DNA of 63,494 nt, counting the filler, from Asterionella formosa (taxonomy: Eukaryota), in NCBI GenBank assembly GCA_002256025.1. It is 26 parts of 26 records of this genome, joined end to end, with 100 filler letters (N's around TTAATTAATTAA, not from the genome) between each part and the next. Parts side by side here need not be neighbours in the genome. Positions count along the whole stretch, not along the records: positions 21,156 to 22,242 come from NKIB01004422.1; 25 more parts are not named here. One strand, written 5' to 3'. The position numbers and the translations under genes are program-made. Under the pieces are notes generated by a model. It made no database searches. It was not told the origin of the DNA and was given only the letters and a program-made list of their open reading frames with translations. Positions within the stretch are counted from its first letter, which is position 1. Each line of letters opens with the position of its first letter. Positions 7,118 to 57,014 of this stretch are shown here, piece after piece.

Positions 7118-7585
7118 ACTACCTGGGCGGGTACTGGTACCTGGAAGCACTACCTGGTACAGTACCAGGTACAGGTACCTGGTACCGGTAGAATAAACGC
7201 AACTTATTCCATCTTTGTTATGGATGATGGGGGGATGTAAAGGTAATGCCCAACAAATGTACATACGACGGGTATCCCAGCAGCATACCGGTATATGGAT
7301 CACCTATATACATAGCCAGAACCTGGTACCAGGTACCAGGTACCTGCTACTGAACTGGTAGGACTCCTACTATTTGTACAGTGCGATCCAGAGATACCGT
7401 TTCCAGGTACCAGGTACCAGGTTGTAGGTTATATTCAGTGCCACCATTTGCGTCGGGTCTTTCTTCGATTCCAATCGAAGATCGTAACAGTACACTCCTT
7501 AACGGCTATGCTTTTGGGCGACGTCTGCCTGCTGGGCGGGGGCGACGATCGCAGGTACCTGTTAGGTACCTGGTACCTACATACC
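7118..7585. repeat. Cluster of TA-flanked CC(A/T)GG / CCGG / CTGG motifs upstream of UFD2
   Basis: For example gtaccaggtacaggtacctggtaccggta (~7161-7189) and acctggtaccaggtaccaggtacctg (7321-7346). Confidence 0.85.
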
Positions 7586-8335: not shown

Positions 8336-8524
8336 CCAAAGAATTACAAAAAGATTTGATCCTAGGTTCTTTGGGAGTGAAAAAGAACAAATAATGGGCG
8401 GACCATTGGGATCATCCAATCTCATCATTCCTCACGACATTTTAGATTGTGAAAACCTTCTTATAACTTAACTAGTATGTGAAACTATATTATCACTACT
8501 ATTTATATTATTCTTGTGTATTTA

Positions 8525-11500: not shown

Positions 11501-12427
11501 AAATCGCGGAAGTTACTTCGTCATATATGCGTTCTCCACAAGTTGTCAGTTTCACTTGTGGGTGACATACAAAATGTTGCATGATATCATCGGAGACACA
11601 TAACAATCCTGCCATGAGCTGTACTGGTTCGAAATAATGGATTGTGCGTGGGATGATCATGTTTGAATTGCTTGTTATCAATCTGTATTTGTTTGGTTAA
11701 CAGTTGACCACCAGCTAATGTTGGTGGAAATGAAATATCCATGCTGTGTTTTTTCAAAGTCTGGTAGGATGGAGATTGATATGCCACCTTCCATCAAACT
11801 ATTTCATTGCTTTGGCCTTGAACAGCCATTTCATTAGATGATCAAAGTAAACTGGTGGAAGGTAGGTAATTCTCGTTAAGGAATAACATGAGTTCCAATT
11901 CTATTGGATGCGCGCATGTTCAGGGAATGTTGACTTGGAAGTTGAAATCGAGGAGGAAGGGGCATTTCCATTGCATTTTCAGGGAGAAAACCGGTGTGAT
12001 TTTGGAAATCTGAATATTGCATGGTCTCTGAATTCAATCCTTGGAGAGTTTTTAGTCTCAATTGTTTGTCTTGTTGTGACTGAATATTGTTATAAACTGA
12101 ATTGTCGCTGTCGTCATGAAATGGATGATTGTTGCCACTTGATTCAAGGATAGGACACATAATCTCTTCTTGTTGTCTACTCTCCCTAAATGCTGCAGCA
12201 GTTGTTACTACACTGCCATTAACTTCTTTCCTTGAATGATTCGATGCACTACCGCAATACATAGTTTCATTATGTTTTCCAGGATCTCGATGTTCTTGCA
12301 TGCAATGTCGACAGTGACCATATGCATAGAAAACACGGTTGCTACAATTTTGATTGTGAGACTCAGATGGGGATTTGTTCTTCGTTACACAGATAACACC
12401 ATTGCAATGTCCGCAAAGACATTGCAA
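8525..12427 (-). mobile_element. Degenerate Plavaka-type (CACTA/Transposase_21-related) transposase, frameshifted and interrupted
   Basis: Ordered motifs across frames: Cys-rich N-terminus, RIYDEVTSAIWF, IIGDTEEQNKTCG..VCRDC..DNP, FGGDLEGLFGATPFEVLHQ (~10160-10100), KCQGKEFP, KFHGMKHYPHLIRKF, and terminal PARHLW. Confidence 0.75.
10151..10818. repeat. ~80-bp direct repeat (10151-10230 and 10740-10818) flanking a 509-bp insertion in the transposase
   Basis: cacc-aaaaaatgatt-attagtgcaggcataataggattatgcgatataacacggcaccact-gtttgctgttgcgta occurs twice with few mismatches. Confidence 0.9.
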
Positions 12428-12733
12428 ATTTCAAATGATGACAAAGTCAGGATATGAACAGGATAGAATAAAAATAAAATATTAATTTTAAATTTAGCAT
12501 CACTTCGATCATGCTGTGCTGGACAATACAGAGTCGTGAAATTATCACTCCACCATAGTAGTAAAAATGAATGTATACCGACGCTGCATCTAGTACAGGC
12601 GCCACTACTAGTAGTATAGAGCAACATCAATGTTTTCCTAGTATCTATGATATGGTTTGTGCATTGTAGAAGTATCACACTAACTATATCTATTATGTAA
12701 CTACTAAGCATGCATTCTTGGATTCTGTTAGAG

Positions 12734-14644
12734 TCATTCAAAATCAACATCGTCATCAATGTCCTGTTGATTAATGCGTTCATGGTAATCAATATTCTTC
12801 TCAGGAACATTTGGTTGAATTGGTTCAACATATTGATGCATATCCTCTTCACTTACATTGGGAAATGAAAAGTATGAGTGTGAGTAGATGATATTTGTTG
12901 TGGAAGTAGCAATTCCACTAGGATTCCTGCCTTTCATATTCAGATCGATTCTTTTCTGAAAGTCCAGTGTAGATTTCTTTATAATAACCGAGTAAATCAT
13001 CAGTCCATTGATCAGTGAGACCATTTGAAACTGAACTTTCTTCCCTCACACTTTTTTGATTAGTGGTTTCCCACTAATGTCGACAAAATCAGTAGAATGA
13101 CGAATATCGTTGCTTCTCTGAAATTTCCTGCATATCTGGATTGAAACCCAAATATTTTCGTTGCAATCTGAATTTTCCTTTCAGCACCAAGAAGCAAAAT
13201 GCTTCTGTACTGGCATTGATCAGCTAACCAACAAAACGTGATTGCAATTCACACTGTGCCCAAAGACTTAGTTAAAATTTGGCTTGGTTACACCAGATTT
13301 GCCTCCTGTTAAAAATGGTTCTCCACGGCTTGTTCTGCCTATAAAATACACTGGAGCAAGAACATTAGCACGCCAGCCTTGGTATCCTTGGCTTCCTCTG
13401 TCAATGTCCTTTGACTGCGCAAAACGATAAAGCGTGAACTCCCACCTAATAAAGTCATCAATATCCATTGTCTGGAAGTTAGCTATATTCTGTTAGACCA
13501 GCTGGTGTGTCATGAATTATGTTAGCATTTTTATATTCAAAAATATTTGATAAGAATATAATCACCAACTCAGAACATCATGCTTTCAGAGCATCTCCCG
13601 CCCAGCAAGAACTTACCTAAGATTCCTTTAAATTGATTATTCAATACATTCTGACATTCTCTCAACTTTTTAATGCACATGCCACCAACTGTTGTTTTAA
13701 TATAATCTAAACGTGCCTTCTTGGTACGTTCAATGGTCTGATTCATCGGAAGTACTAGTGCATCAGAACCATTCCATATGAAATCGGCAAGCTCTGGGTC
13801 AGTCTCCAATTCTTTGCCTAACTCCGGTTTCACTGTGAATAGCCGAGTTAGGCAACATTCGGCAAACCAATCCTGTTTGTGATTGGAAATGCCTTTCATA
13901 CTACTCGGACCAGATAGGCAGGGCGGGATGTTTGATTCTCTTTTGGGACCAGAAAAAAGCATATTAGATTGATATTCTTTTTTACAGTACCTGCAATTCG
14001 CGAATTCTAACCTCAAACTTACATGTTCACATCAAAACTTCTTGGTCTTGAAAGCAAACAAAACTCACAGCCATCGTGACAAATGATGGATCGGTTCGAT
14101 TTTAGCTAAGCAGTAAGCAGGAACGACGTTCTGAAAAGGCTGCTGAAATTGAAGAATCTTGATAAACTCGTATGGACGAGTTTTGAACCGAATTACAACC
14201 TTTGTAGTGATTGAGTTCATTGACCAATTGATAATATCCTTTGGCAAGTGCAAAATTTTTTTCCCTCAGTTTGTCATGTACTTGTTGGTCCATGCGATTA
14301 GAAAATTTATGATATGGTACCATGTTGTTCATCTGCATCCGGGAGTTATTAATGGTATCATCGACAGGAGCCATTTTTCTTGTATCAACAACTGAAAAAG
14401 AAACGTCATCATCGCTTTCAGTATCAATTACGGGATCCTTTGTACTAGTTGCTGATGGTGTCCTCATCGACGGTGGGGTAGTACCCCCACTAACTCCCTG
14501 TTGCCGATTGGGTTCCTTTGGATAATTGACTATTCGCTTTTCCTTTGTTAACTCATTTTGGTACTTGCTTCTTTGTTTCATACCGGCAGTATTTGCCACA
14601 TGTCGCATGTTTCCATGAACCTCTTTTTGGGTTTTTGAAGACAT
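12734..14644 (-). pseudogene. Accessory ORF of the Plavaka-like element (fragmented, probably spliced), starting MSSKTQKEVHG
   Basis: Same strand and directly upstream of the transposase; clear paralog at 52472 (MSSRNHKEVHG...); ORF pieces 14644-14102, 14016-13570 and 13468-13268. Confidence 0.55.
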
Positions 14645-14877
14645 TGCTTGTACTACTAGATAACTGTTGTTGTTGTCTTCCTTAAAGTTCGATGATCTTA
14701 AAATCAGGCTTTGCTAGCTACAATGAAATAAATCATCAGCCACTACATGTAATATTTTACGCTGTCTAGATATGATACCATAAAACCAACAATGCTATTT
14801 ACTTTACCACATAAAAAATCAGAGTTCGAGTAATAGCATATCTTGTCGAGTAATAGCATATCTTGTTTTCAATTATG

Positions 14878-15340
14878 CGATTATACGATCCTGAAACTAT
14901 GATGCTTTACTGTCCCACTGTGGTCGCAACAGCCCTGAACAGATAGTGTTCTTTTCCTCGCTTACTACTCCTTCTACCCTCTTTCAATTATACAATCATA
15001 TGATCCTGAAACTATGATGATTTACTGTCCCGCTGCAGTAGCAACAGTCATGAACATATGGTGTTCTATTGCTTGCTTACTACTCCAACTATTCTTTTTC
15101 AATTTTATGATCATATGATCCTGAAACTATGATGCTTTTTTGTCCTGCTACAGTAGCAGCAGTCATCAATATATGGTGCTCTGTTGCTCACTTACAACTC
15201 CGACTATCCTTTTTCAATTTTATGATCCTACAATCCTAAAACTATGATGATTTACTGTCCCACTGCAGTAGCAACAGTTATGAACATATGGTATTCTGTT
15301 GGTCGCTTACCACCTGGTACTCTGACTACCCCCAGTATAT
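14878..15340. repeat. 115-bp tandem repeat, about 4 copies, 5' of the element's accessory ORF
   Basis: (g/a)atcct(g/a)aaactatgatg starts at 14887, 15002, 15117 and 15232. Confidence 0.92.
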
Positions 15341-17599
15341 CACTTCCTACCTGCTACTGGTACTCTGTATATTTCTGATAAAATCTTATTGTCGTATGAT
15401 GTACCGGTACACATGAAGAACTCCCGCCCAAAAAGGGGCTTAAACATTTTGCTACCAAAATTCTCGCATATAAATAAGGATACAAATGGGTTATGACTTA
15501 GTACACCAATTGAATGGTCTAAATAATTAGTTCCAACGGACGTAGAAAATATTGATTCAAACAAATTTCTAAAAAACAGTACCGGTACACGAAGTTGTGG
15601 AAAACAATGGACATATAGTGCATTGAATATTTTCGAATTATCTATATGCGAATATGATCATCTCAACAATAGCAACCAGACGTTCCATATTGAGAGTGCC
15701 TTTGAATTTTATAAATGTACGACACTTGATATATTTATATATTTACAAGTTTTATAACTATATACACGGCAAATATATTTGAAATCGTTCTGTCATGCAT
15801 GCTAACAAACAATGCCTGCTTCATGAAAAGAAATATCTTAGTAAAGCACATGAAAAGAAAGGAAAGTTTACGCAATAACGAAAAACATTGTGGCTTCGAC
15901 ACATTGCGCCTTCGAAGGATGGAGTATGTTTAAGGTAATGAAGCCATGAATGTGGTACTTGGATGACATTTATTGGGAGGCGGGACAACAACAAATTGTC
16001 AAGTAAACGCACATTTCCTTTTCTCAGTTGAATCAACAGCTTGTTTCGCTTGTTGGGGGCACCAATGTAAAACAAAACAAAATTGGTAAGTGCTCTTGTT
16101 GTTGGACCTATTTACTTCTGATGGAACATAACTGACGGACACGCCACTTTACCTTCTCTTAAAGTTAAGCTAACGAAAATGAATCGGTAAGTTTTATTCG
16201 ACAACATTGGAAACCTGAAAACTACTTATTCAAGAATTTAGCTACTGACAATTTACTATTACAGACGTATGCATCACTTGCTTTGATTTGGCTGTGGTAA
16301 GTGAAGCAAGCAAGAGGATACGATGGAATGGCGTGATTTTGTGTCAGTGTAACATGTCTAGCTAACAAGTCATTCCTTCTCATCGTTACTGTAACTGCGT
16401 AGGACAATAAAACCGATCAAACAACGGAATAGTCGGCGAGTTCAGAATGACACCAACAGCAGGGAGAGAGACACAACATTAGTAAGGCACTGCTTGGCAC
16501 AATATTCAGAATAGAGGAAGAAAAGGGTGAGACAGGAACAATGTACACTGAGACGAGGAGAGAAACATGCCTTGGGTAGCTATCGAAACAGAAATATCAT
16601 TGTTAAATTTGTTAATTTTGTTATTTAAATTATGATCCATTCCAATCTATTTTAAACAATGGTTGTGATTAGAATATGATCATGCTTAAGATAGATTTAC
16701 GATGAAACAATTCACATGATAGCATGGAGTTGAGCTGATTTTAAGATGCGTTGTAGCAATAATTTACATCTGGCGATCACAAGAAGTGAAAATAATTTGA
16801 GAAGGTTTATGATATTGATGAGAAATGTTGTTGATCAGTTGATATACATTGTGTGATGATACTGTTCTTATTATCATTATACTTCAAGGTTGGTAAAACA
16901 TCAATAAATCATCATAGTTATAGGATACCTTGATCATAGTGTTTTGATCCAAAAATTATCATATATAGTGTACAATACTCTTGATCCTAAATGCATGATA
17001 CTTTTTTTTTGCAGACGTGGGATGGCACTCGTAGGGTGATCTTCTCACAGCGTCAGGGGTGCCACTTGTACGGTCAACATACTTGTGCTACCCACCTCGA
17101 ACACATGTATACTCGCAGGCATGAGACCACCTCAGGCGTGTATTGCCTTCAGCAGTACCGATGTCATGCTATTTCGAGGTGGTGTTGGATATGATCTCAC
17201 ATCATGACCCTAAATAGCAATTCAGATCAAAACTTTTTGGCCTGCTAAGATTTAACTGGCACCAAATAGTCCAAAGAGTACTAATTTACTGTTTTGATTT
17301 GCTAGGTTATTATGTCATCATGAAGAACAACTTATATGAACAAGGACCAGCATTGTTATGTTTTGAGTTGTTGGAGTTGGAGAAAATCTATGGTCACAAT
17401 GAAGAAGAAGAATTCATATGGTCTGGAAGTAAACAAGTGAAAACTAATTTGTGTTTAGCTGACAGATTATGTTAACAATCAATTCTACTTGAGTCAGGCT
17501 TTGTTTGACAAAGTATCGCCATGACAACAAATAATAATTCACATCAGCTGAGACAAATCTGGCAAGGGTCCAGGGTTGCGCTATTAGTATTACATCTAT

Positions 17600-19757
17600 T
17601 CGGCTGAACACTCCTATCAAATGAACCCCTGATCAGAGATGACATGCTCTCCTTCGAAAAAACTTAAGCTGAAGGCTCACCTGAAGAAACCAAAGTCGTA
17701 CTAGGCTGGGAAATCAATAGCCGCACCCTCTATTTTTGGCTCACTGCGGAAAAACTGTCTAGTTGGACAGCGGACATTCACGCCCTCCTTCAAACCCCAA
17801 TGGTCACCTTTGATCAACTGGCCACAACCATCGGTCGCCTAAATCATGTCTCCTATGTCATCCCCACAGCACGGGCTTTTCTGAGCCACCTTCGCCAAGC
17901 CGAATGACAGGTACGTCACCGCAAGTCAAAAATAACCATCACCGAGTTGCCCCACGAAGAACTCTGTCAATGGCTGCAATTCCTGAAAGTGGCCAGGCGG
18001 GGCATGAGCCTAAACCTTCTGACCCTCCGAGTGCCAACAGTGATCCTTTGCGCAGACGCCTGCCCACATGGCTTGGGCGGTTATTCTCTGACCTCTGGAT
18101 GAGCCTAGCGATTCGAGATCCCTCCACAATATCGGAGTGGCCTATCTCTAAACCTCCTTGAATATCTAGCCTCCGTGACCACGATCATAGTGGAAGTCGA
18201 GGCAAACCAGATCCGACCCAAAGCTTGTCTCCTTTCCCAGCTGGACAACTCCAGGGCCGACTACTGGTTGTATCTAGGGGGCGCCCATTTCCAAGGCACG
18301 GAAAAAGCAATCCATCTCGACGTATCACGGTGGCTGGCCACCACACTGTTACGGTCAAAGGCGTGCCACTATAGCCAATGGATCCCAGGTGAGGATGATG
18401 TTGTGGCCGACTCGCTGTCCCGCGACCACCATCTTGCACCCGAACCACTAACTCATCTCCTCTGCACCTTCGCAAAAAATCAGCTGCCCCCAAATCTCAA
18501 CATCTACCCCCTGCCACCCGCAATCGACTTGCAACTTATATCCTGGCTACGGAGGGGGCGCGTTCCGCCAGACTACAAACTCAGACCAAAGCAAAGCTCA
18601 CTCGAGCTTTCCTACTCTGGTAAGAATTTCTGCACTCAATCGGTTTCGGCACCCCCAAGACGTCTTCCTGGATACACTGTCCCCTGACCAATGAACACGT
18701 AGATTCGGCGCCTTCACAAACGCCATATGGCAAGCCGAGTTCAATGGACACAGAACTCGCCCACTGGCGTCAGCAACTGTCCGTGACACCATGCATCGTA
18801 TCTCTATCGGCGACCTTTATTGAACATGACCACGCCGACCCCGCTACAAACCTACAGGGAAAAACTCACCGCATTTTACGCCTCCAAAAGAGATGACCCA
18901 GCCGTTGAACACCAACGGGCGCTGACCAATGACTTTATTTTACAGGTACATGCCAACATGTCAACACCGGTGGATCGCACTTTGGGTCCGCTCCTAATCC
19001 TCGCTTTCTTCTTCGCCATGTGATCATGCGAATACCTTACTGTGAAAGGTGACTGCCACACGAAGCAACTTCGGATTCAAGACTTGTTTCAGGATAACAC
19101 CGAGATTACCGGTCATCGACATCGCCTCCACTAGGCCGACATCATTTGCATCACTTTCCGGGATCAAAAAACGGAGAGAAGGATGAGACGATCACGCTCA
19201 GCCACACCAAAGACACCATCATGTGCCCAGTCAAACAAGGAGCGACAATCATCAACCGCCTCTGGGAACTCACGGGGACCAGCCCAAACACCATCATAAA
19301 TACCTATCTGTCGGCTGGGGTCCTCTACACGCTGACTGCTGAGACGGCACTCGGTCGGGTCCGACAAAAAGCCCAGGACTTAGGGGCCACCAAACTGGGC
19401 CACGAACCCGAGCAGGCCATTGGCCTCCATTCCATCCGCAGCGCCGCCACAATGGCCATGATTTTGTCCGGTGTACCAAATTACATGGTCATGCTCATTG
19501 GGCGATGGAAATCCGACGCTTTTCTCACTTACGTGCGAAAACAGGTGGCAGAATTTACGAAGTCGGTGAGCCAACAGATGATCACCATCCCAAACTTCTT
19601 TCACCCACCGGAACAGCTGGCAATAACCCTCCCAGAATTTACTTCTCAATCGACAATGGCAGGGCGAGAAGCACATGCCATGGTCCATATTCCACAAGGA
19701 AACAAGCCATGGAGAGAGAAATTGGTCAGCTCATGTGTGTTGGAGAAAATATTTTAG
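17600..19757 (+). mobile_element. Degenerate tyrosine-recombinase retrotransposon (DIRS/Ngaro-like): RT C-terminus, RNase H, YR
   Basis: RT: AEGSPEETKVVLGWEINS, TIGRLNH. RNase H: ADACPHGLGG, NLLEYLA, WIPGEDDVVADSLSR. YR: FFFAM*SCEY, KNG, CPV, HSIRS, GRWKSDAFLTY. Confidence 0.9.
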
Positions 19758-21424
19758 GAAAGAAAATCCCGGTATAAATTACCTACTACATATTGAATCG
19801 AATGAATCAAGAAAGAATATGGTACCAGAGAATTCGAAAACAATCTACGCCAACAGTAAAAANNNNNNNNNNNNNNNNNNNNNNNNNNNNNNNNNNNNNN
19901 NNNNNNTTAATTAATTAANNNNNNNNNNNNNNNNNNNNNNNNNNNNNNNNNNNNNNNNNNNNGGAATTAGCAGCTGCAACAAATTCTTAATGATAACACC
20001 GCTTCCCTTGGGCTTCCAGCATGTACAGGCTCAGTTGATTGTGTGCACATTGGGTGGAATCAATGTCCCTTGTCCTACCAAGCAAAATAATATAATACTT
20101 ATAAGGTGCCAAGTGGTACTATCCATTGTTCTTTTTGAGGTGGTTTCTGATCACAGAAGGAAGATTAGGAACAAGAAATTACAATCACTTAGTCAAATTT
20201 GATGCTGTTGCTTCCAATCTGCATGATAGGAATTCTTTTCTTGGCAGGCAAGAGGGGAATGTGCTCACTGCCTCACTCACTGTAGATTGTTTCATCTATT
20301 ACATGTAAAGGCTACTACTATTTTACATGTGATAAGGGTGGGTACCCGTGATGAACACTTTCCAATTAATTATAGCAATGAAAATGGAAAAGAAAGGATG
20401 TGGGGTATGATGATGGCTTGTGGAGTCTGTTAGAATTGATATCATAGATAAAGATGAGCAATTTCTTCTCTTTCTTTAGATTCAAACCTGAGTTGAATTT
20501 AGTATCCAGCAGCAAATATAATGGCAATTTGTACACGCTATGAATCGTGTGCACTTGAATGGAACCACCAATCCAATATTGAAGTCAGTCACAAAAGGAA
20601 TACCGGTACTCCTCATCAGTTATGTACTCAGTTGGTCCTTGAGGTGTCATACTAACAAGGAACACACTTGTGATGCTGGTAGGAAAGGAGAAAAGGAGGC
20701 AGGCAGATGGGAAGGCCAATGATTACAAAAACAATAATAACAACAATGATGACAACAATGCTGAATGTCAATGGTTTGTACAATACCAATGAAAATAAAT
20801 TCACAAACTAGACTACCATTCTTCATGTAGAAAATAAATATCAGAACATTTACGTCGGATTGACATGATAAATAAAATAATCTACGGGACCGTACGACGA
20901 TGATTTGAAATTTCAGGAAGATGAATACGAAGATTTTTGCCGCGATAGCTTTTCAATCTTTGACGCTCTTTTTCGTGGACCGTATTAATAAAAAGCTTCC
21001 TTGGCCTTCATGTGACAACTGATATTAAATTTCGATTTCAGTTTCAACTAGAAGTNNNNNNNNNNNNNNNNNNNNNNNNNNNNNNNNNNNNNNNNNNNNT
21101 TAATTAATTAANNNNNNNNNNNNNNNNNNNNNNNNNNNNNNNNNNNNNNNNNNNNAGTAGTGTTCGGAGAAATATGATGCAGTTTGAAGGAGAAATGGAA
21201 GAGATCTAACCGTAACACATATACCTAGCTGTTAGTAAATGATAACTAATTTCGTATCTATGAAACAATGCATTTGCAGAGGCTGTTATTTCTATATATC
21301 TCCAACGTCTGCGCGTCCTGCCAATATCTACTCATTACCTCAATCGTTTCGACTGGTGGCATCGAGTAAAACATTTGCGAGAACGAATGGATCGATAGGA
21401 TATTGATCACAAACAGGAAGAAAC

Positions 21425-21760: not shown

Positions 21761-22242
21761 CTGTTGTCGTTGTCTTCCTTAAAGTTCGATGACCTTAAAT
21801 TCATTTACCGGTACTGTCCCGCTGTAGTAGCAGCAGTCATAGACATATGCTGTTCTATTTATACAATCCTAAAACTATGATGATTTACTATGGTGTTCTA
21901 TTGCTTGCTTATTACTCCGACTACCGGTACCGCTTTTCAGTTTCACGATCTTACAATCCTAAAACTATGATGATTTACTGTCCCACTGTAATTGCAACAG
22001 TCATGAACATATGGTGTTCTATTTGTTTTTAGTTTTACGATCATACGATCCTAAAACTATGATGATTTACTGTCCCAATGTAATTGCAACAGTCATGAAC
22101 ATATGGTGTTCTTTTGGTTTTTAGTTTTATGATCATACAATCCTAAAACTATGATGATTTACTGTCCCACTGCAGTAGCAACAGTCCTGAACATATGGTG
22201 TTCTGTTGCTAGTTTACTACTCCGACTACCCCCAGTATATCA
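21761..22242 (-). mobile_element. Copy of the Plavaka-like element's 5' region with a 92-bp tandem array
   Basis: Leader ctgttgtcgttgtcttccttaaagttcgatga matches ~14664-14697; repeat cores at 21865, 21955, 22047 and 22139. Confidence 0.88.
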
Positions 22243-23013: not shown

Positions 23014-23566
23014 GGTAGAAAAAGCGATAATGTTGTTGGAGTAAGTCAGGTGTGTGCACTTATTGTCAATGATAGGAGTACAGTACAACACGTTAACGCC
23101 GGGCAAAGTGTAGCAGTGTTGTTTGGAACCGGAATCAAGTTTTCAAAACAGTTCTTTATCTTTTGATTGTAAACTGATGTTGTGACATCAATTACCGGTA
23201 CTGTATACATTGCAATCTTACAATACATAGAGTAATTTATGTAAGTACCAGTACCGGTAGTACCGGTTGATCTCTTCGCTCACGCTATCTACATTTTTGA
23301 TTTCTTGTTGGTGACAAAGTAAACCATCACCAATTTTCTTTTGTAAGGATTGCTTCGTGTGTCCACGGGTGAGGGCCTGCGAGGCTTCTTGTTTGTCAGC
23401 GGGAGGTACCTGTTACCAGGTACCAGGTANNNNNNNNNNNNNNNNNNNNNNNNNNNNNNNNNNNNNNNNNNNNTTAATTAATTAANNNNNNNNNNNNNNN
23501 NNNNNNNNNNNNNNNNNNNNNNNNNNNNNCTTCGTCACATCTCATTTCAACCTCCTTACTTTGACC

Positions 23567-24616
23567 ATGATACGTGTGGCTTGTAGCCTTCGATACCTTC
23601 AAAGAGGCACAGGATCTAATAATTCTCTAGCCCTTGCGAGCTTTCGCGTAGGAAACAACTCCAGGATACTTAGTGATGCGAGCGCTTCTAACAAGTTGTT
23701 TTCATCGGCGCGTTCGTTCGGGTCAACCACAAACTGCGAAGAAGTGAAATCCTTCGGCAATGCTGCTCCCGCTCCTCCATCCTTTGATGAAACAATGAGC
23801 AGGCTGTTTCTAGAGAGCTCATCGAAAGATCTCCCAACCATTTCTGAAGTGGTACCTGCCGCTGCCTGGGAGCCTTCGTGGTGGCCATCGGACCAAATCC
23901 TCCTGCTCCTTAACTTTGTTCAGGAAACGACTGGCACCCCTCTAGCCATCACGATTATTGCAACGACTCTTTCGATTCGTGTTCTTCTGTTTCCCCTGTT
24001 CGTCAAGGCGCAGCAGAACCAATCTCGCATGGCTCACTTGTCACCGGAGCTCACAATTCTTAAAGCCAAGGTGGACGCCAAAGGATCCAATATCACTCAA
24101 GCAGAACAATTAAAGATGGGACAGCAAATGAAAGCTCTGTTTGCAAAGTACAAAGTGAATCCTGCGACAGGCTTGCTAGTTCCTCTAGTACAGATGCCTA
24201 TCTTCATGTAAGTACTATCATTCGAAATCTGCAGTTAAACTGCATAAAAAACGCTCACCCACTCCAAAACGCTATTTCAGGGGCATGTTCTTTGGTCTAC
24301 AGAATATGCCTAAGATATTTCCTGAAGAAATGAAAAATGGTGGTATGTTGTGGTTTACTGACCTGTCGATTCCGGATCCTTACTATATTATGCCAGTCAT
24401 GGCAGCGACCTCATTTTTGCTGTCCATTGAAGCCAACAAGGAACAGATGTTGGCTACGAACATGGCGCAGGGAGCACTGATGATCAACGTCTTTCGCGCA
24501 CTCGGTCTTGTTATGATTCCTTCCACTTCCTTCTTTTCAGCCGGTCTTCTTTGTTATTGGGTTACAAACAATACTATCACGTTGGTGCAAACCCTCTTAT
24601 TCAAAAACGCAGCTGC
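23567..24616 (+). CDS. OXA1: Mitochondrial inner-membrane insertase Oxa1 (YidC family), 3' partial; intron 24208-24280
   Basis: Presequence-like N-terminus; IRVLLFPL, PLVQMPIFM, GGMLWFTDLSIPDPYYIMP and YWVTNN motifs. Confidence 0.92.
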
Positions 24617-24869
24617 NNNNNNNNNNNNNNNNNNNNNNNNNNNNNNNNNNNNNNNNNNNNTTAATTAATTAANNNNNNNNNNNNNNNNNNNNNNNNNNNN
24701 NNNNNNNNNNNNNNNNACAATTATTTCCGTCTTGTGAAAAATGAGAGAGTTCTTCACCTCGCAAGAAAAACGCGACTTCATGTTGTTATCGGCGATCTCA
24801 ATTTTCGTTGTCATTATTAGTGTTATTACTTTACTTCTTTTACGATTGTATTTTCCATGTCATTCTTAA

Positions 24870-25030: not shown

Positions 25031-27089
25031 GGTAGCTAAATTATTACATACTAGTGCCTACGAGGACAAAAAGAATTATGGCACGTTACTTTGTCTATGA
25101 CAAGAAAATTATTGGGTGTTTGGTTCCACCTCGAGAAAAATGTACAGGGGGGTCCAGCAACCATAGGGGGGGTCCAGGACAATGAAGTATACGGTAGTCG
25201 TGGTGTATGTCAAGAATGTAGCATCAATGGCTATAATGAGTCACAAGGATTGTGGACTCGACTGTAGTCCAATAGGTCAAATGGTGAGTTCCCATGTCAA
25301 GAAGCTTGCTAACGAGATTGATGGTTTAGATCAATCAGAAGAAGGTTTGCATCAACAAAAAGGGAACACGAAGAACAGGTTCTCAAAGCGTGATGAATGG
25401 GATTGAAACTTAGTTTTAGTTTAAGCTTGTAATTAAAAAACAGTGAGAATTGACAGAGTAAGGTCATCTATATCAAAAACTAGCATGGAGGCTAGCAGCA
25501 AAAGATAACTGTACTAGTAGTAAAACAGGTAAGACCTACATAAGAGTATACCCATCAGACAGGAAGGAGTACGTGACCTTTTAACAGTTGTAAGGTGCTG
25601 ATGATATTTGAGTGCTGGTATAGCCTCAGTCATTGATGAGGGAGAAGACAGTTCTAACTGGCTGAGCTCTGATAAAAATAAAATATTATATCATGTGGGT
25701 ATTATAAAACAAATTATTTTGGTGATTTGATACATAATATTGTTGTTGCTCTCTGATAGCAGAGATATTTTAGACTACACTTATCTGACATTAAATAAAT
25801 ATTNNNNNNNNNNNNNNNNNNNNNNNNNNNNNNNNNNNNNNNNNNNNTTAATTAATTAANNNNNNNNNNNNNNNNNNNNNNNNNNNNNNNNNNNNNNNNN
25901 NNNCATACAGTGCTCCTCTATAGGTATGGTTGTTTGTAATTTCTTTGCATGGTGCTTATCAGTAAACAGTATTGCTTGACAAATGCAGGTGAAAGGCTCT
26001 TCTGATAGCAAATGTAACCTGCCCTAGTTATTGTTGTCTATGTGAGCATACTGGTATACAGACGAGATCCACAGCATGCCTCTCAGACGCGATGTGGAAA
26101 CGGTACGTGGACCAGTAGATACCAGTAGTAGTATGCCTGATAATTGGTCTGAATTTCGAACTGATAGAAGTGGGTATGACCCTTGGATACACAATAGAAT
26201 AGCACTGAACCCATTCCCGGCATTACTTCAGCCAATAACGGGTAACCAACAACCACAGCTTCCCAGCGCTTCTGCCTGAAAAAAAATATTAATAGCAACC
26301 ATAATGTCCCGAGGCAATGATGTCATTGAAAATTAATATTTTCAATAATGAATTCCTCCCTCAAACCAGATTTCCAAATTATGCACAATCTAGATGTGGA
26401 TCGTTGCATAATTTCTTTTAGGAAGTGTATTGTCATCAAGAGAAATTACAAAGGATCGTTGAAGCGCCCATGATGCTTCATACGAACCCTTTGTAGTACG
26501 GAATCAATTCATTGTTTGCAGCAGTGCGTGCAGTAGATATGAGACCCTTCTTTGCAGATCATCGAGTCATTTTACTCATTTAAATGCGTGTCTTTGCTTT
26601 CCCTTTGTACCTCGTCTGCATAAGTCAACGGATCATGTTGTAATTGGTGTCCGCTGATTTTTGCTTTGTTGCATTTGCTGATTAGATGTATTATAGCAGT
26701 AGCATTGCCGTTGGTGACGAGGCAACATTTATTTGCCAGATGATAAGTCAATGTAAACGACATATTAGTACTTCAGCCAAACGACACATGAAGAAAATCA
26801 TTGCAATTGCAATTCACTGGAAGTTGTTATCACAAATAATAGAGGAGAATGCTGAACAAGACCCAGGCACTGTTTCCAAGAGTGATCCACAATGAACTGC
26901 ACCACCATGATTGCTCCGAATAATTAATAATTTTACACAAACCATAATTCCTTAACCAGATGCATATGTATATGTACTGCTACCATACCNNNNNNNNNNN
27001 NNNNNNNNNNNNNNNNNNNNNNNNNNNNNNNNNTTAATTAATTAANNNNNNNNNNNNNNNNNNNNNNNNNNNNNNNNNNNNNNNNNNNN

Positions 27090-28094
27090 CCCCTTGAATT
27101 CGAAGAGTGGGACGGCAGAACTCCCTTTTGGCATCACTGTGTGGCAGGTTCCTTGGCAGGCGTTGGTGAACATGTGCTTGTATATCCTCTGGATACGGTC
27201 AAGACTCATATTCAGTGCGCGGCGTGTATTCCTCGTGACAGCATTGTTTCAAAAGCCGCACCGAAACACTCGAATATGCCGCACGGTGGCATGTGGACCA
27301 CCATGCGACACATTGTCAGTCAGCCAAGCATTCGGGTCGGCCCCTCCTCCATGACTGCTGCTGCTGCTACTACTGCTCCTCCAAAAAATTTATTTAGATT
27401 GTGGCGAGGCATTCCGACCATTCTCGTGGGGTGTGTTCCTGCGCACGCTCTCTATTTCAGTGCCTACGAAGCTGTCAAATACTACGGAAAAAGACCCGAC
27501 GGCACTACCGCCCCTCTATGGGCAACTGCAGCCGGAGCGGCCGCAGTACTGGGACACGACATCATCATGACCCCCCTTGATACAATCAAACAACGCTTGC
27601 AACTAGGGCATTACTCTGGAATGAAGCAAGCCATTTCGGAGATGTATCAAAGGGAGCACGGTCTATTAGCCTTTTATCGATCGTTCCCCATTACTCTGGT
27701 GACAAATATTCCATATGGTATGGTCATGGTAGGTACCAATGAATTTCTAAAGGACCGCTTGCTAAATGGAGAATCTCCATCGCTTTCTGTCTGTCTCTTT
27801 GCCGCGAGTGTATCAGGCATGATGGCGGCTGCCACAACCACCCCTTTGGATCGCATCAAGACTGTCCTACAAACTCAACACTTGACAACTGCATGCACAT
27901 TGGGAGCATGCCCAAGAATTGGTGAGGGAGGAAGGCTGACCTTGAGACAAGCCATTGCAAAGATTGTCCAACAAGAGGGTATGGCAGGATTTTTCAAGGG
28001 AATGGCACCACGGGTGGCATCTCACACCCCAGCTGTTGCAATTAGTTGGACCACATATGAAACTGCCAAACAATGGTTATTATCTTATGAATAG
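27090..28094 (+). CDS. Mitochondrial carrier, mitoferrin/MRS3-4-like, 5' partial
   Basis: Three PxDxxKxx(Q) motifs; mitoferrin-typical AGVGEH..YPLD, PAHALYFSAYE and HDIIMTPLD. Confidence 0.92.
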   Translation, partial: PLEFEEWDGRTPFWHHCVAGSLAGVGEHVLVYPLDTVKTHIQCAACIPRDSIVSKAAPKHSNMPHGGMWTTMRHIVSQPSIRVGPSSMTAAAATTAPPKNLFRLWRGIPTILVGCVPAHALYFSAYEAVKYYGKRPDGTTAPLWATAAGAAAVLGHDIIMTPLDTIKQRLQLGHYSGMKQAISEMYQREHGLLAFYRSFPITLVTNIPYGMVMVGTNEFLKDRLLNGESPSLSVCLFAASVSGMMAAATTTPLDRIKTVLQTQHLTTACTLGACPRIGEGGRLTLRQAIAKIVQQEGMAGFFKGMAPRVASHTPAVAISWTTYETAKQWLLSYE

Positions 28095-28309
28095 GGGATA
28101 GGTATGGATGATGCACAAGTTTTAATTGGTTATGATGATTTTGAATTGGTGCCATGGGACCAGACTAACAAGCTGNNNNNNNNNNNNNNNNNNNNNNNNN
28201 NNNNNNNNNNNNNNNNNNNTTAATTAATTAANNNNNNNNNNNNNNNNNNNNNNNNNNNNNNNNNNNNNNNNNNNNCGTCCACTTTAAGGCCACAGGCTAC
28301 TCAGGAACG

Positions 28310-29361: not shown

Positions 29362-29461
29362 NNNNNNNNNNNNNNNNNNNNNNNNNNNNNNNNNNNNNNN
29401 NNNNNTTAATTAATTAANNNNNNNNNNNNNNNNNNNNNNNNNNNNNNNNNNNNNNNNNNNN

Positions 29462-35334: not shown

Positions 35335-35898
35335 ACGAAAAGTGAATTTTACACTTTAAAATATGCACAATAGGTAAAAAACAATGAAAAATCCGTTTGC
35401 CTGATTCAATTTACTGTTAAAGTATCTTCGAGTGAAGAAACAACTGTTCAAATGGACACCGTTTCAGGAAATTATTTATATGAACTAGCAGTAGTCATAA
35501 ATCATCATTTTTTTCTGATTATTCTTATACAAGGATCATACAGCTAATTTGAGGCAGACAATCTTTCCAGAGCGACTATTTACCAGGTAAATTACCTCAT
35601 CCACTGGTGGCTCAAAGCCATTGCGATTTACTGGACTTGAGGTATCCTGTGAGATTACTTGCAAGTACATGCACTTACATGGACAATGAAATCTAACAAG
35701 CAACCAAAGAAAACATTCATAACACCGGAGTATTACCTTACGCTGTTAAAAAGGGTACCAGGTACCAGTAATCACTTATAATGTGCTTTCTAAGACTACT
35801 TGTACTAAGTCTGTCTTGGCTACCTAAATCCCACCAATAGGTTTACTGCTTTATTTTTATGATAAATCTGTAATGGTGCAGTAGCCTTCGTTTGAGGC

Positions 35899-47145: not shown

Positions 47146-50100
47146 CATGATGTGAAGGCATTACCCCAAGAGGGCAACAAGCTACATTCTCCGTAAACTA
47201 TAGAAAGCTATTTTCCACTAAATTGGTTGAAGTACTGGAGTATTAAACATGTTCAAAAATGATTAGTTGCTCCGTATTTGTTGGTCACCTTCCAGCAGCT
47301 GCCAATCCAGTGGCACAAATTGTTATTGTTATTGCTGGTTCAGGAGGTCAGGTGTATATTGATGAGATTGGTCAAGGTGGTAGTGTACTAGATGAGGTGG
47401 TACCAGTGAAACCAGCAGGCAGAGCAGAATTTGATGACAAAGGCTGGTCAGCAGAGGAATAAGGAACTCCCACTGTTCAACTATAGTTGCAACCAAACTT
47501 TAGGTCACTGCCTCTCATGAAGTGCAGGCTCCGATATTTCTCCGGCTAACAGCCCTTCCTACTGATAAATTATTCTGAATCGAATGGTGTATATAATATA
47601 TGTTCTAAGTAGTGAACCTGCCCTGATTTTTTCGAACGCTTTTCGTAGAATTCGACTCGATTGCAATGTTTGCTCTGGACCCCCCTTTTCGTTGACCCTT
47701 TGTTAGAATGGAAGATATTCTTTATATAAGATTAAATAAGCCCCTGTCTGGCAACACCTTGTCCATTTCAGGAAAATGACTGCAACTTGCTGGCAAATCT
47801 AAATCATATCTGCACATGGCAAGTGCTCGATGTGAATGATGGAAGCATGATGATGAGATTTCCAAAATACCGGTAGTTTACCAGTGAAAACACTATCTTC
47901 ATTACTAATGCTACTTCTCTGTTCCAGTATAGTTGCACCCTACCTTTAGGTCACTGCTTCACATGAAGCACAACCTCCAATAATTCTCTGTCTAGTCGCA
48001 CCTTCAGATTGGGTTCTGAAATGCTTGACAAGGCGATCGAATCAAAACAGATTACTTACAACAAATGTCCAAACTGCCAAGGAGATAGCTGCCCAGCAAC
48101 AATATGATGCCCTTCTGAATCGCGTGGAGACTGTGAGGAGAGCAAGCCCAAAGGAAAAATAAGCCTTCAACATTTCCGCGTTGAGAACCCTTGTGATGTG
48201 TTATAAATGTGACAGTGATGCAGAGAAGAATTTCCCAGGCCCTTCCCATTGACAAAGGTGGTGCAGGTGTGAGGAAAGGAAGGGGGGAATGCCCGGAAAG
48301 AGGCATTCAACAATGAATTTTCATCAGAAGAATGAAATCTATGTTTTTCTGTTATTTCATAATAATTATTATAAAATGTTGTTGTTGTACTCCGTGATCC
48401 CTGTAGAACATAAATTAATTCTATGGTATTAAGATATTTTTATATACCGCTTTGAACCTCTATAACGGATAAATGCATCATTGTAAACAATCAGTTGGCA
48501 AATAAATCTTAAAGTACGCTTTTATTGAAACTCGAATCTAATGGAGTACTTGGAGTTGCACTAGGGCCCATATGGGCCCCAAGGGAATGACAAGTGAGGG
48601 TGAGTCCATGGAGGAAGTCTTAGGGGTTGCAGTTTGGAGGTAAAACAACCGTAGAGATTGTGAGCTAGAAGGGCAAGGAGCGCATTCGAGGGCTCTTAGA
48701 GGGTTTGGAGTCATGTGTAGAAAAGTGGAGGGAAAAGCGAGCAGACTGGAAGGCCAATTTGGGAGAGTAATATTGAAAACAGAATCCAGGAGTTGGTAGA
48801 ATCAGTATGAGGAGTGTAGTATCATCTCAATGAAGACATGCTGATAAGAGAGCAAGAGTGAAGGGTCTGGGAGGACACAGAAAGTATTTTTGGCAAACTG
48901 TATGTCATTTCGGTTAATTTGAATTGAGAAGCCTGGCAGTCGATTGCCAGGATGAAATGTAGTAGGCAGAACAAGGTTGAAGCACATCCGATGGAATCCA
49001 TTGGCTGGAGTGCATGCAGAGTAATGTTAAAGTGAGCTCATCTACGTAGTTAGGACTCGGAGTCAAACGAGTCAAACGATTCGAATGAGTCAACTTTGAT
49101 GTACCAAGCTCTCATCAACCACACATTATACTTTGTTACTCCGACTATAATGAGCCGGACAATATAAGCTATTTCGGAAGACCGATAGTTTGAAATGAAT
49201 GATCATGGTTAAATACCTATGATCAGTAAGTGTGAGATAGACATGGGTCTATCTATGATTGTATGTTCCTAGAAATGCAAANNNNNNNNNNNNNNNNNNN
49301 NNNNNNNNNNNNNNNNNNNNNNNNNTTAATTAATTAANNNNNNNNNNNNNNNNNNNNNNNNNNNNNNNNNNNNNNNNNNNNGTTACACACTCAATCAAGA
49401 AGATTGTTTTCAATCTGTGATCTCTTGATAATAGGCGATTGCGAACTTGTTAAATAATACATGCGCAACCCCCTAAACAGGAAATTTCCCTCTGCTTCGT
49501 ATACTGCTTAAAGTAAACCTGTAAAAGTATCAGGGGTTTATTGTTTGTAATCACCATGAAGCAGCACCTCTTTGTTTCGAGACCGGATTGCCGATAACAC
49601 ACACGACGATACTGATCGTTTTTTTTCTGCGATTTTCTCATTCGTTAGAGAATTCCCTCCGCTAATTAATTGTATGTGCTTCTTATGATGTATCCTCATC
49701 ACTGGATGTTCAAGATCAGGAAATCTCGCCATCAGTCGTGTGATAATTTTTTTTCTATAATTACCGGTCATTTACGCCAGTACAAATTCCGGTTAAAAAG
49801 CAGTGGTATACCAGGTAACCAGGTTACCTGGTAGGAGCACCATGTAAAGGTACCAGTTAAAAACTGGAAGCCACCGTTATTTTACTCCATCTTCCGACTG
49901 AAAAAATTTATTGAATTTATCAATCGACCTGATGCAAGTACGAAGCGTATGTTCGACGATTCACTATATATACTCAACGGATAAGTAATCAGTTTCGATT
50001 CAGTGTATAAAGCCATGAAGATCTAATTTTTTCAAAGAATGTTGCATAGCGGTGGCTCAGAGTGCATATTTTTCTATTCATACATGAGTATATTTTCCCC

Positions 50101-51751
50101 CCAAACCGTGATTATTTTTACTCCGTTTATACTACAGAAATTCTTTTCGCGCGATACAATATACATTTTGCGCTTGCATCATCACAAAATCTTTTCTGAC
50201 GCATACTGTATTCGAAAGAATGATGACCTCGTACCCCTAATTAATTATACTAAATTAATTCTATCGGAAGAACATTATCATTCTTGTAAATGTACGTGTA
50301 CAGTTCTTGGTCCCAGGTCACCTGGACACCTTGACACCTGGTACCAGGTACAAGGTGAGCGATCTTGCGCATCAATACAGATGTATATAAAGTTAGGGTT
50401 ATATCAAATATATCAGTACTTGACTAACACCTATTGTTTACTTTGATGTCAACTTGGGAAACAAACNNNNNNNNNNNNNNNNNNNNNNNNNNNNNNNNNN
50501 NNNNNNNNNNTTAATTAATTAANNNNNNNNNNNNNNNNNNNNNNNNNNNNNNNNNNNNNNNNNNNNTGAATAAATTTTATGTATCCATTTAAATAATTTT
50601 TTCATCCAATCTCATTGTTGTCATGGTTGAGTTCATTCATGATGAACTTGAAATCGAAGTCCATTGCACAGTGATGATTGTGAAATCATTGTAGTAGCTT
50701 AATTATAACTGCTATAGGACTGTATTTGCGGCATTCCTCTAAAGTTTCAACTCCAGATAGCCCACTGTCAAGCTAAAGAGCTTCTGCACGTGAATTGGTT
50801 GGTCATGTAGGCGTGGATTTGCCATGCTTAACACTAAATAGGTCATATATAAACAAAATCATGTGCTCTCGCACTGCTTGATTTGTTTACTGATAGCGCT
50901 GATCATGGCAGTTATGTTGATAAATCAAATGGTGCTGGAGGTTGTAAAATTGTTGAATAAACCAACAGAATAATACTGACATTGTCAATGTGATTTTAAC
51001 AAGCGTTTTTAGGTGCAAAATATTATATACATAGAGTCAGGGGTTTTGCTAATACTAGGCCTACGGGGCCTACCTTGCGGCCCCAAAGATTGCACCCAGC
51101 CATAGTCCGATGGCATAGTAATGTTGAAGCAAGTACAAAGGTTATTGTAGCTTGTCCTCTCAGGTACCACTAGATCTAATTATAACTTGGGTGAGGTCAA
51201 TATTTTTTGAGATATAAAAGTTTTCAATGTCATCGTTTTGCCTTGTAGGGATGGTGACTCTCAGTATTTTGGTTTTTACTAGTACATAAATGAGGATTTC
51301 CCGATTACCCTATTGTTGCCACAAAACCTTTTTGATGCCACGCAATTATTAGACCATTACAGATTACTACCCTTTTATTTATTGTCCCTTTTGATGTTTT
51401 CTTCCCATAATAATAGTTGATTTTGATGATACTCCACCATCAATTTTTGGTTTTGGGTCAAATGCAACTTCAGTTATTTATTTTAGTGATGGTTTAAGTG
51501 ATATTTAATTACTTCTATCGCGTGACAGCCTTCCACTTGTTGTTGTTTGACAATCCTCATACATAAAATATGTAGATCATAGTACAATACTTGCTGGCTA
51601 TGAAGCTGTGTAAAGAATGTTATGACAGTGTTGCTGATCAACCAAGGCATTNNNNNNNNNNNNNNNNNNNNNNNNNNNNNNNNNNNNNNNNNNNNTTAAT
51701 TAATTAANNNNNNNNNNNNNNNNNNNNNNNNNNNNNNNNNNNNNNNNNNNN

Positions 51752-52836
51752 ATATATATATATATAGCATTGGACATTTATAAAATTCAAAGGCGCTCTC
51801 GATATGGAACATCTGATATGGTTGAGATGGCCATACTTGCATATACATAATTCGAAAATACTCAATGCACTACATGTCCATTGTTTTCCACGACTACGTG
51901 TACCGGTATTATCTCTGAAATTTGTTTGCATCGATATTTTCTACGTCCATTGAAACTAATTATTTAGACCATTCAATAGGTGTAAGTCATAACCGCCAGG
52001 GTTTTGGTAGCAAATTGTTTAAGCCCCTTTTTAGGGCGGGAGCTCTTCATGTTTACTGGTACATCATATGACAATAACAATATATCATATATATATACAG
52101 AGTACCAGCAACAGGTAGTAAGTGATATACTGGGGGTAGTCGGAGAAGTAAACTAGCAACAGAACACCATATGCTCAGGACTGTTGCTACTGCAGTGGGA
52201 CAGTATATCATCATAGTTTTAGGATCGTATGAAAGTTAAATTAAAAACCAAAAGAACACCATATGTTCAGGACTGTTGCTACTGCAGTGGAACAGTAAAT
52301 CATCATAGTTTTAGGATTGTATGATCGTAAAACTAAAACCAATAGTCAGAGTAATAAGCAAGCAACAGAACACCATACGTCTATGACTGCTGCTATTGCA
52401 GTGGGACAGTAAATGAATTTAAGATCATCGAACTTTGAGGAAGACAACGACAACAGTTATCTAGTAGTACAATGTCTTCAAGAAACCATAAAGAGGTTCA
52501 TGGAAAGGAGCGACATGTGGCAAATACTGCTGGTATGGAACAAAGAAGCAAGTTCCAAAATGAGTTAACAAAGAAAAAGCGATTAGGCGATTATCCAAAG
52601 CAACCCAATTGGCGATTGGGAGACGTTGGGGGTAATACCCCATCGTCGATGGGGACACCATCAGCTACTAGTACAAAGGATCCCGTAATTGATAGTGACA
52701 GCGATGATGACGTTTCTACTTCAGTTATTGATCCAAGAAAATTGGCTCCTGTCGATGATACCATTACAATTCGGTTCAAAACTCGTCCATACGAGGTTAT
52801 CAAGACTCTTCAATTTCAGGAGCCTTATCAGAACGT
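51752..52836 (+). mobile_element. Copy of the Plavaka-like element's 5' region: 92-bp array plus start of the accessory ORF (52472), with an internal deletion
   Basis: Reverse-complement homology to ~14125-15730 across the contig; ORF paralogous to 14644-14102. Confidence 0.9.
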
Positions 52837-55206: not shown

Positions 55207-55306
55207 NNNNNNNNNNNNNNNNNNNNNNNNNNNNNNNNNNNNNNNNNNNNTTAATTAATTAANNNNNNNNNNNNNNNNNNNNNNNNNNNNNNNNNNNNNN
55301 NNNNNN

Positions 55307-56391: not shown

Positions 56392-57014
56392 NNNNNNNNN
56401 NNNNNNNNNNNNNNNNNNNNNNNNNNNNNNNNNNNTTAATTAATTAANNNNNNNNNNNNNNNNNNNNNNNNNNNNNNNNNNNNNNNNNNNNCTGTTTCCC
56501 AAGTCCAATGGTACCACCAGAATGCAGCAAAGTTTTCTTCCCATTCATGATCCTTGGGACTTCGTCATGTTGTGGCGTTCTACCCCCTGCTCCATAACCA
56601 CAGCCACCCTGTCGCGGGTCGTTGCAAGTCACGATAATGGGTTATGTACCAAATTTTTCCGGTATAATAGAGGGGGGGGGGCAGCGCTTTGACTTTCACA
56701 GCCTCTCTACAGAGCTGCGACAGAAAATAATAGGGAAAAACATAGTACCACCATAACCGTAGGTGCTACTTAAAGGTGCTGATAAAAGATGTAGACGTAC
56801 TACCTGGTACCAGGTACCGGTAGTAACTCGTCAGCCTGGCTAATTATCGCGCCAGTTAAATTCATAAAAGCAATATTATGATAACTACCGGGTAGGTATG
56901 CCGTGAATCAACACATCACGAGCATTGATTGTCTCCAATAGTACTTAGAAGTGCTGTCACTAGTAGCAGATCACAATGATTTTGTTGTTTTAACAAACGA
57001 CGTGTTAACTTAAC

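Follow-up and report, generated by a model that had tools for sequence, protein, structure and literature searches.

Palindromic TA-bounded motifs in the diatom Asterionella formosa as probable excision footprints of two groups of pogo-like transposons

What is the origin of the short, TA-bounded palindromes that recur in the DNA of the diatom Asterionella formosa? The stretch analyzed here, referred to as the window, comprises 63,494 nucleotides in 26 joined parts of the assembly GCA_002256025.1, and carries two such motifs, TA-CCGG-TA (TACCGGTA) and TA-CCWGG-TA (W being A or T). We interpret both as scars of excision, left by two groups of TA-targeting, pogo-like cut-and-paste transposons, a reading to which we assign a probability of about 0.8. 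Measured against an order-2 Markov model, the window contains 32 copies of TACCGGTA for 0.57 expected and 23 of TACCWGGTA for 0.61 expected, so that both types exceed chance about 40- to 55-fold, at a density of about 0.9 scars per kb (55 scars in 61 kb). The same excess (112 against 2.5 and 135 against 3.0, respectively) is found in a 254-kb sample of DNA that is single-copy within the sampled set and that, consisting of transposon flanks, is not random; altogether, the sampled genome DNA amounts to about 0.9 Mb, or 1.3% of the assembly (68.4 Mb, 15,436 contigs). A preliminary description of the window had ascribed the motifs to footprints of one element of the Tc1/mariner/IS630 kind. The footprint proposal is supported by matching ends and target bias, with two donor types in the place of one and with these donors akin to pogo, not to Tc1/mariner proper; none of the three findings that it had named as refuting it was borne out in full.

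The long form is usually derived, arising by insertion of a unit at a TA, as is seen where paralogous copies are compared. The three pairs of filled and empty sites on which the preliminary description was built, (a) to (c) in Table 1, are real and correctly placed according to self-BLAST and paralogs, the self-BLAST gaps being a clean 6 bases at 21809 and 7 bases at 15311. Scar (a) has a bare TA in both paralogs found, its polarity resting on these few copies. Among the 39 sister units aligned at scar (b), the noisiest pair, in which the right-hand bases differ (ccgc against tcct), 31 show a bare TA, and the unit occurs in none of the six commonest states listed. For scar (c), 91 sister units divide into 69 with TA, 14 with TACCTGGTA, the window copy with CACCTGGTA and 7 others, which confirms the proposed mutation of its first TA; this scar is one old insertion common to a sub-lineage (15 of 91 units), not private to the window copy. 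Within 733 kb of fetched genome DNA plus the window, 40 distinct motif sites have a paralog: bare copies outnumber filled ones at 19, filled copies predominate with two bare ones at 2, and no bare copy occurs at the remaining 19. The best-sampled sites show bare-to-filled ratios of 23:3, 15:0, 15:0 and 7:2, and at one site, where 7 of 10 copies have a bare TA, the filled form is TA-CCTGG-TA-CCAGG-TA. The opposite polarity, by which the long form is ancestral and a bare TA arose by loss of what lay between two direct TA repeats, can draw on the two sites with a filled majority and on one 6-nucleotide loss of this kind that was called a derived deletion. It conflicts, however, with the bare majority at sites with many paralogs (23:3, 15:0, 15:0, 31 of 39, 69 of 91) and leaves the 40- to 55-fold excess unexplained, and we consider it most improbable as a general account.

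Elements with TA flanks and either CCG or CCA(G/C) ends, as the excision reading calls for, are both found in the assembly. A genome search with the DDE_1 domain (PF03184) gave 93 matches and was the source of the family C loci, which lie above the cut-off. Family A, with ends TA|CCGTAAAACCTGG and 89 exact ends genome-wide, has TA flanks in all five complete copies (0.8-2.5 kb); its copies are 99-100% identical amid unrelated flanks, and its open reading frame (ORF) of 406 amino acids matches DDE_1 (E=1e-21) with a DD35D triad. Family A is a young and intact family of the pogo (DDE_1) kind. Family C has ends TA|CCGTATAC, and for one copy each of families A and C a single TA is present at an empty paralog. 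Together with family B, which ends in TA|CAGTG, they share a DDE_1 domain, short terminal inverted repeats (TIRs), TA duplication and a length of 2.2-2.5 kb, and in domain, TIRs and duplication, as in the DD35D of family A, they resemble the pogo superfamily, which is on record for stramenopiles, its triads ranging over DD29-56D and its transposases over 300-977 amino acids (PMC7386202, PMC7325037). With TA|CCGTA ends and TA duplication, families A and C match the TACCGGTA scars. Genome searches with DDE_3 and Transposase_1 gave no match, but were insensitive, as family A scores on DDE_3 in hmmscan and the Transposase_1 control was also silent.

For the CCWGG scars, the donor was predicted from the scars themselves. 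Their CCAGGG form, TACCAGGGTA, occurs 15 times and its mirror image TACCCAGGTA not once, which together with the G-TA flank bias pointed to CCAG ends and a GGTACC target; a subsequent scan of the sampled DNA yielded family E. A 744-base copy (L221) has perfect TIRs and lies within GG-TA...TA-CC. There are 38 exact CCAG ends genome-wide, and among 35 distinct flanks 31 have TA, 27 a G at position -1, 24 GG, and 10 an adjoining scar. The family includes MITEs, that is, miniature transposable elements bounded by inverted repeats, of about 750 bp, with 506 first-look candidates of which 40 were scored, at 79-89% identity, falling into CCAG- and CCAC-ended subfamilies. TA is present on both sides of 11 of the 12 complete copies read in the genome and of both complete metagenome copies read with a strict pattern. 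The metagenome scan gave six family-E loci, including a complete, CCAC-ended element of 3.76 kb (L323, L324), to which a CCAG-ended piece in the genome is 96.9% identical over 1,073 bases; the metagenome ends are TA-flanked in 8 of 8 cases, with CCWGG-TA adjoining in 6. A one-sided match of a metagenome flank to the genome was rejected as an empty site, the right flank not continuing. The window itself holds a family-E end at 49851, contrary to the earlier impression that no donor was visible in it. Some copies stand in tandem with one common TA, or are inserted beside another family-E end (L296, which is C14885, L248 and L323), in line with such an end itself offering a GG-TA target.

The 944-amino-acid ORF of the L323 element contains D462, D611 and D649 (DD37D), the second and third of which are invariant in 60 relatives. 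It has 221 database relatives at E<=1e-20, including one from Fragilaria crotonensis at 51%. A sequence search against solved structures gave no match. As a structural model we used a 723-amino-acid database relative (P0001; 99% identical over the part searched; pLDDT 86.8), for which the best fold matches were Metnase (Z 12.5, root-mean-square deviation 3.1, 193 aligned), Mos1 (Z 12.3, 3.2, 195) and Sleeping Beauty (Z 10.9, 5.2, 211). The protein is thus predicted to be an IS630-Tc1-mariner-type transposase, with a modeled RNase H-like DDD core of mariner-type fold. Its neighbors in the Atlas are DDE_1 clusters at 0.95, and on fold, motif order and these neighbors a place in pogo is likely.

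What ties each scar type to its donor is the flanking base. G precedes TA at 216 of 267 CCWGG scars and at 69 of 222 CCGG scars (p=2e-29; background 27%), and at 27 of 35 family-E ends against 12 of 51 ends of families A and C (p=1e-6). The donors do not differ from their scars in this respect (E and CCWGG, p=0.65; A and C and CCGG, p=0.31), and isolated CCWGG units retain the G in 97 of 143 cases. Each scar type carries the flanking-base bias of its own donor. The products can be rationalized from chemistry on record. In Tc1/mariner excision, the transposase cleaves the non-transferred strand some bases in from the end of the element, and once the break is joined the terminal 2-4 bases of the element remain flanked by the TAs, TACAGTA and TACTGTA being the footprints of Sleeping Beauty (PMC6943129); the scars described here are alike in keeping the TA duplication and the terminal 2-4 bases of the element. 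Here, cleavage a few bases inside each end would leave the flanks with 3' overhangs. A pair of CCG overhangs would anneal through their self-complementary CG to give TA-CCGG-TA, a one-base overlap accounting for rare CCSGG (S being G or C). Two CCAG overhangs could pair C:G, A:A and G:C as in Sleeping Beauty, with one extra base per side if the overhang is of 4 nucleotides, and fill-in would yield CCAGG or CCTGG at random (TACCAGGTA or TACCTGGTA); a two-base overlap might give the minor CCAGGG. When end-join words are counted in the 254-kb sample, only 2+2 (112 against 2.5) and 3+2 (11 against 0.9) stand out for CCGT ends, and 3+1, 3+2 and 4+2 for CCAG ends, with CCAGGG at 15 and CCCAGG at 0.

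A single CCG-ended donor could in principle make both scars, CCWGG being either CpG-deaminated CCSGG or CC plus GG with one untemplated A. CpG decay is indeed active (observed/expected CpG 0.65-0.69), and at one host site, that of 15402..15409, the states listed comprise 17 intact TACCGGTA and 7 decayed to TACTGGTA or TACCAGTA (7 of 24). At host CCWGG sites of like age, however, W is found in 11 of 17 paralogs and S in none of the states listed, which rules out CpG decay as the source of CCWGG. With the differing flanks of CCWGG and CCGG (p=2e-29) and the existence of a CCA-ended family of the right flank bias, we regard a one-donor origin as very unlikely.

At each scar GG-TA and TA-CC remain, which family E prefers as its target, so that repeated visits would stack units into mixed-orientation, GGTACC-rich arrays. 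Triple units number 1,141 genome-wide, overlaps included, against 0 in the control; trimers are mixed in 31 of the first 50 listed (counted by hand), as are 10 of 26 array dimers in the 254-kb sample. Mixed-orientation arrays are not producible by slippage alone, which nevertheless probably adds to the GGTACC-rich arrays. By arithmetic, (TACCAGG)n translates to YQVPGTR; the scars would explain spurious ORFs of the YQVPGT type. Units of the form TA-CCTGC-TA are also seen (13 against 2.0 expected in the 254-kb sample), with short arrays of their own (L170, L171); they may be decayed CCTGG or a further scar type.

Another resident of the arrays is family D (L231-L240, L202, L170-L171), a plant-mariner/Stowaway-like family with TA|CTCCCTC ends and a DD39D triad (counted by hand in the L234 frame). 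It lies mostly at GG-TA beside CCWGG units, and D and E are often found beside scars and each other. As a maker of the arrays it was rejected, for its CTCC ends cannot yield CCWGG and its own products are rare, with 4+1 and 4+3 joins at 7 against 1.1 and 4 against 0.07. Family D would land in the same arrays and leave different, rarer scars. Families A, C and D have in common a similar second ORF of about 130-150 amino acids with Cys and His residues (L083:393-785, L085:2023-2415, L128, L231-L238) and no Pfam match; an Atlas search with the 130-amino-acid version of family A gave weak matches only.

All three pairs belong to pieces of a single old repeat family, the copies of which are about 85-90% identical. 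This host element, with 594 exact ends in the genome, is a large TIR element with subterminal tandem units of about 92/115 bases (also in L195-L199), and it is these units that bear the pairs; window positions 2377-19862 correspond to contig C4420. On inspection by eye, 2-bp duplications were evident in 6 of 7 paired copies. For CMC/CMCT elements (CACTA, Mirage, Plavaka), duplications of 2-5 bp and mostly CA..TG ends are described (PMC12730594); the host ends are CG..CG. Only decayed transposase frames were seen in it, matching nothing in Pfam or in a homologue search.

How large is the share of such scars among recent small insertions and deletions (indels)? In 352 kb covered by at least four paralogs, we took indels that have clean flanks and set a copy apart from no fewer than 60% of those covering it, a filter that excludes tandem-unit sites like (c) and sites of thin coverage. 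Derived insertions number 706 (594 after merging shared events) against 265 deletions. The preliminary description had named a dominant class of TA+CC(W)GG+TA as support for its model; the class is a minor one beside insertions of 3 and 4 nucleotides. Clean TA-CCGG-TA is nonetheless enriched, at 3 of 40 six-base insertions where any CCGG-core insertion of 6 nucleotides is expected at 0.05% (random) or 0.5% (tandem duplication); TA-CCWGG-TA is absent from the 14 unique 7-nucleotide insertions under this filter. The major class has the form XY-(G/C)-XY or XY-GC-XY for any dinucleotide XY, as at 15671 and 14644 of the window, and makes up 263 of the 594 unique polarized insertions: the former accounts for 174 of 225 three-base insertions (96 of 106 among those other than perfect tandem copies), the latter for 89 of 137 four-base insertions, against 0.9% expected at random and 14% from tandem duplications. 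Of the 'deletions', 32 of 41 that span three bases and 8 of 11 that span four have the same form and are probably insertions common to the majority lineage, the polarity being imperfect. The class resembles a scar left by an element that duplicates 2 bp, whatever the dinucleotide. No donor for it was found in the sampled DNA, and a GG-ended candidate with 2-bp duplication was discarded as having a false boundary. Hairpin-type excision of the CG-ended host element is a possible source of XY-GC-XY, and host target and scar dinucleotides correlate with rho 0.95 over the 9 classes without TA and 0.62-0.71 with TA; the rarer cores GGC, GCC and GGCC (4, 2 and 2 events, overlapping) would instead fit an element that has GG..CC ends and makes 2-bp duplications.

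This larger class without a donor is one of the observations that a purely host-driven origin could claim, in which fixed palindromes are placed at TA by an endonuclease with end-joining, or else by templated repair, no element ever having been present, and the matching ends reflect coincidence or site preference. Scars exceed donors by two to three orders of magnitude, no pair of element and scar has been seen, and family D, which sits in the arrays without making them, illustrates that site sharing alone proves little. What weighs against such a process is that the two cores correspond, in both end sequence and target bias, each to its own resident family, and that the minor products, among them the D-type ones and the 15:0 asymmetry, are those to be expected from the ends. 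We hold it to be very unlikely and retain excision by the resident transposons as the more probable reading.

Several observations nevertheless weigh against excision as set out here. Among the paralogs compared, no locus has the element on one allele or paralog and a scar on another. Extrapolated from one window, scars would number about 60,000 genome-wide, against 89 exact ends of family A, 38 exact ends of family E and its 506 first-look candidates, so that scars outnumber living donors hundreds to one and long or very heavy turnover must be assumed. New scars are rare in the old repeats, with clean TA-CCGG-TA at 3 of 594 unique insertions and 3 of the 89 of 5-8 nucleotides, and the two sites with a filled majority may be deletions between TAs. 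For family E, no two-sided empty site was found for its probable TA duplication; the intact metagenome ends are all CCAC (8 of 8), and the approximately 0.9 Mb of genome DNA read holds decayed or partial pieces only of its transposase. Unlike pogo, this family (3.8 kb, 944 amino acids, DD37D) has no Pfam DDE_1 match, in 0 of 31 proteins, and no significant sequence match to family A, hhalign against families A, B and C giving a non-significant probability of 0.1 with the motifs in order. The joining scheme has its own difficulties: products of 4 nucleotides specific to CCAC are not enriched, so that the 4-nucleotide overhang fits the CCAG subfamily only, and a 3-nucleotide CCA overhang, which fits both, leaves the 15:0 ratio of CCAGGG unexplained. 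The CC+GG product could come from either donor, the count of 76 for TACCAGTA is partly CpG decay of TACCGGTA, and the excess of homogeneous dimers (16 of 26) suggests that slippage contributes to the arrays. Neutral in this respect are read contigs from four runs of four studies over 31850-49280: of 176 indels, the 12 listed are all in repeats and include no visible polymorphism between TA and scar; long contigs cross several motifs with 3-5 gaps (the unit of this count being ambiguous) and, within the motif at 32481, a point change, a hint of these sites being common to other populations.

Could the motifs instead be selected transcription-factor sites, their abundance being regulatory? This has been proposed for GTACCGGTA and TACATGTA of oomycetes, which have the same palindromic, TA-bounded form, one of them letter-identical, and are likewise very abundant in stramenopile non-coding DNA (PMC3520976, PMC10031896, PMC11134190). 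ATACCGGTAT/GTACCGGTA is an upstream motif in Plasmopara and Phytophthora (PMC10031896), TACATGTA is bound by PsMyb37 (PMC11134190), and Seidl et al. argued against a footprint origin of the latter (PMC3520976). Twelve long-ORF intervals picked by hand take up 16.5 of 61 kb of the window, and 54 of its 55 motifs fall beyond them, which would suit regulatory sites; but avoidance of ORFs is equally expected of frameshifting or disruptive insertions, and selection makes no whole-unit insertions inside dead transposon copies. Where the oomycete motifs have been read as binding sites, one with its bound protein, those of Asterionella are insertions that match the ends of resident transposons, and a primary regulatory origin is highly improbable, whereas secondary use of scars as binding sites may occur.

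Among the closest footprints on record are those of Osmar5/Stowaway in Triticeae, in which 1-4 bp of TIR remain between the TAs and re-insertion occurs beside an existing footprint (PMC1925063). That case concerns one intron over about 13-25 million years; here the pattern is genome-wide, and the CTCC scars of the Stowaway-like family D are rare and distinct from the motifs studied. Canonical Tc1/mariner footprints differ as well, since the present scars are among the commonest non-coding words, derive from two donor groups, stack into arrays and have pogo-like donors. The word 'footprint' is absent from the pogo paper (PMC7386202), and no description of such scars in diatoms was found in the literature searched, which was mostly non-subscription and excluded supplements.

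Table 1. Coordinates of scars, empty sites, arrays and elements in the window
Feature	Position	Strand	Basis or remark
Scar (a), TA-CCGG-TA (TACCGGTA)	21806..21813		+6 relative to bare TA; self-BLAST
Empty paralogous site for scar (a)	52403..52416	-	Self-BLAST
Scar (b), TA-CCGG-TA (TACCGGTA)	21922..21929		Sister-unit alignment
Empty sister unit for scar (b)	15198..15210	+	Sequence reading
Scar (c), (T>C)A-CCTGG-TA, CACCTGGTA	15311..15319		Self-BLAST and sister units
Older TACCGGTA common to most host copies	15402..15409		33 copies: 31 filled-length, 2 bare
Left end of family-E MITE: GG-TA, CCAG-starting TIR at 49853	49851..50302	+	84% identical to complete copy L221 over 480 of 744 bases, then truncated; candidate donor type for the CCWGG scars
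Two CCWGG scars immediately outside the family-E end	49809..49833		Motif scan
Stacked array of CCTGG, CCAGG and CCGG units, non-coding DNA	7151..7190		Motif scan
Mixed three-unit array CCTGG-TA-CCAGG-TA-CCGG	56801..56822		Motif scan
Host element, part; CG...CG ends, 2-bp target duplications; right end 17017	11842..17017		Further fragments at about 21761-22242, 51754-52766, 57017-57575

Of the remaining content of the window, genes recognized by eye encode a U-box ubiquitin ligase, an Oxa1/YidC-type insertase, a mitochondrial carrier and phosphoenolpyruvate carboxykinase (4044-6971, 23486-24668, 27042-28094, 33363-35334), none of them with a scar. Also by eye, Copia-like retrotransposon coding fragments with gag, protease and integrase motifs were noted at 28232-30176 and 55255-56439, and an endonuclease fragment of a LINE-like (long interspersed nuclear element) element as well as tyrosine-recombinase/RNase H-like fragments at 1137-2324 and 18109-19757. 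The 25 gaps are runs of N with a fixed TTAATTAATTAA spacer, an artefact of joining, and many parts measure only about 1.1 kb. Elsewhere in the genome, Harbinger-type (DDE_Tnp_4) elements (L141-L165, L200-L214) gave 150 scored matches of 423 candidates, one family having dozens of identical copies at contig ends, and an 803-base contig (C6897, L230) with a bacterial-looking transposase frame is possibly contamination.

The excision event as such is textbook; its scale, the presence of two donor groups tied to their scars through target bias and the growth of arrays by self-targeting are a variant for which we found no counterpart in the literature searched. Tentatively, and with more doubt than confidence, a broader scenario might be drawn, in which small indels of this lineage stem mainly from transposon excision and not from slippage (the XY form alone making up about 45% of insertions, 263 of 594, with insertions exceeding deletions by 706 to 265), an undescribed pogo-like clade (DD37D, 221 relatives) grows GGTACC arrays by re-targeting its own scars, and these arrays draw in further transposons and are perhaps recognized by host proteins. 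An insertion-biased indel spectrum of this kind affects alignment and mutation-rate work. Footprints are usually taken as rare by-products of transposition; here, they would form a genome-scale record of past cut-and-paste activity, and a target preference would offer a route to self-growing repeat arrays. Donors with natural, intact transposases permit a direct test, the predicted products being TACCGGTA and TACCWGGTA. For motif-finding in diatoms and oomycetes, caution is advisable, as the top palindrome may be a scar. If the broader scenario holds, the abundant 'promoter motifs' of stramenopiles, GTACCGGTA and TACATGTA among them, may have originated as scars of transposons and been co-opted afterwards.
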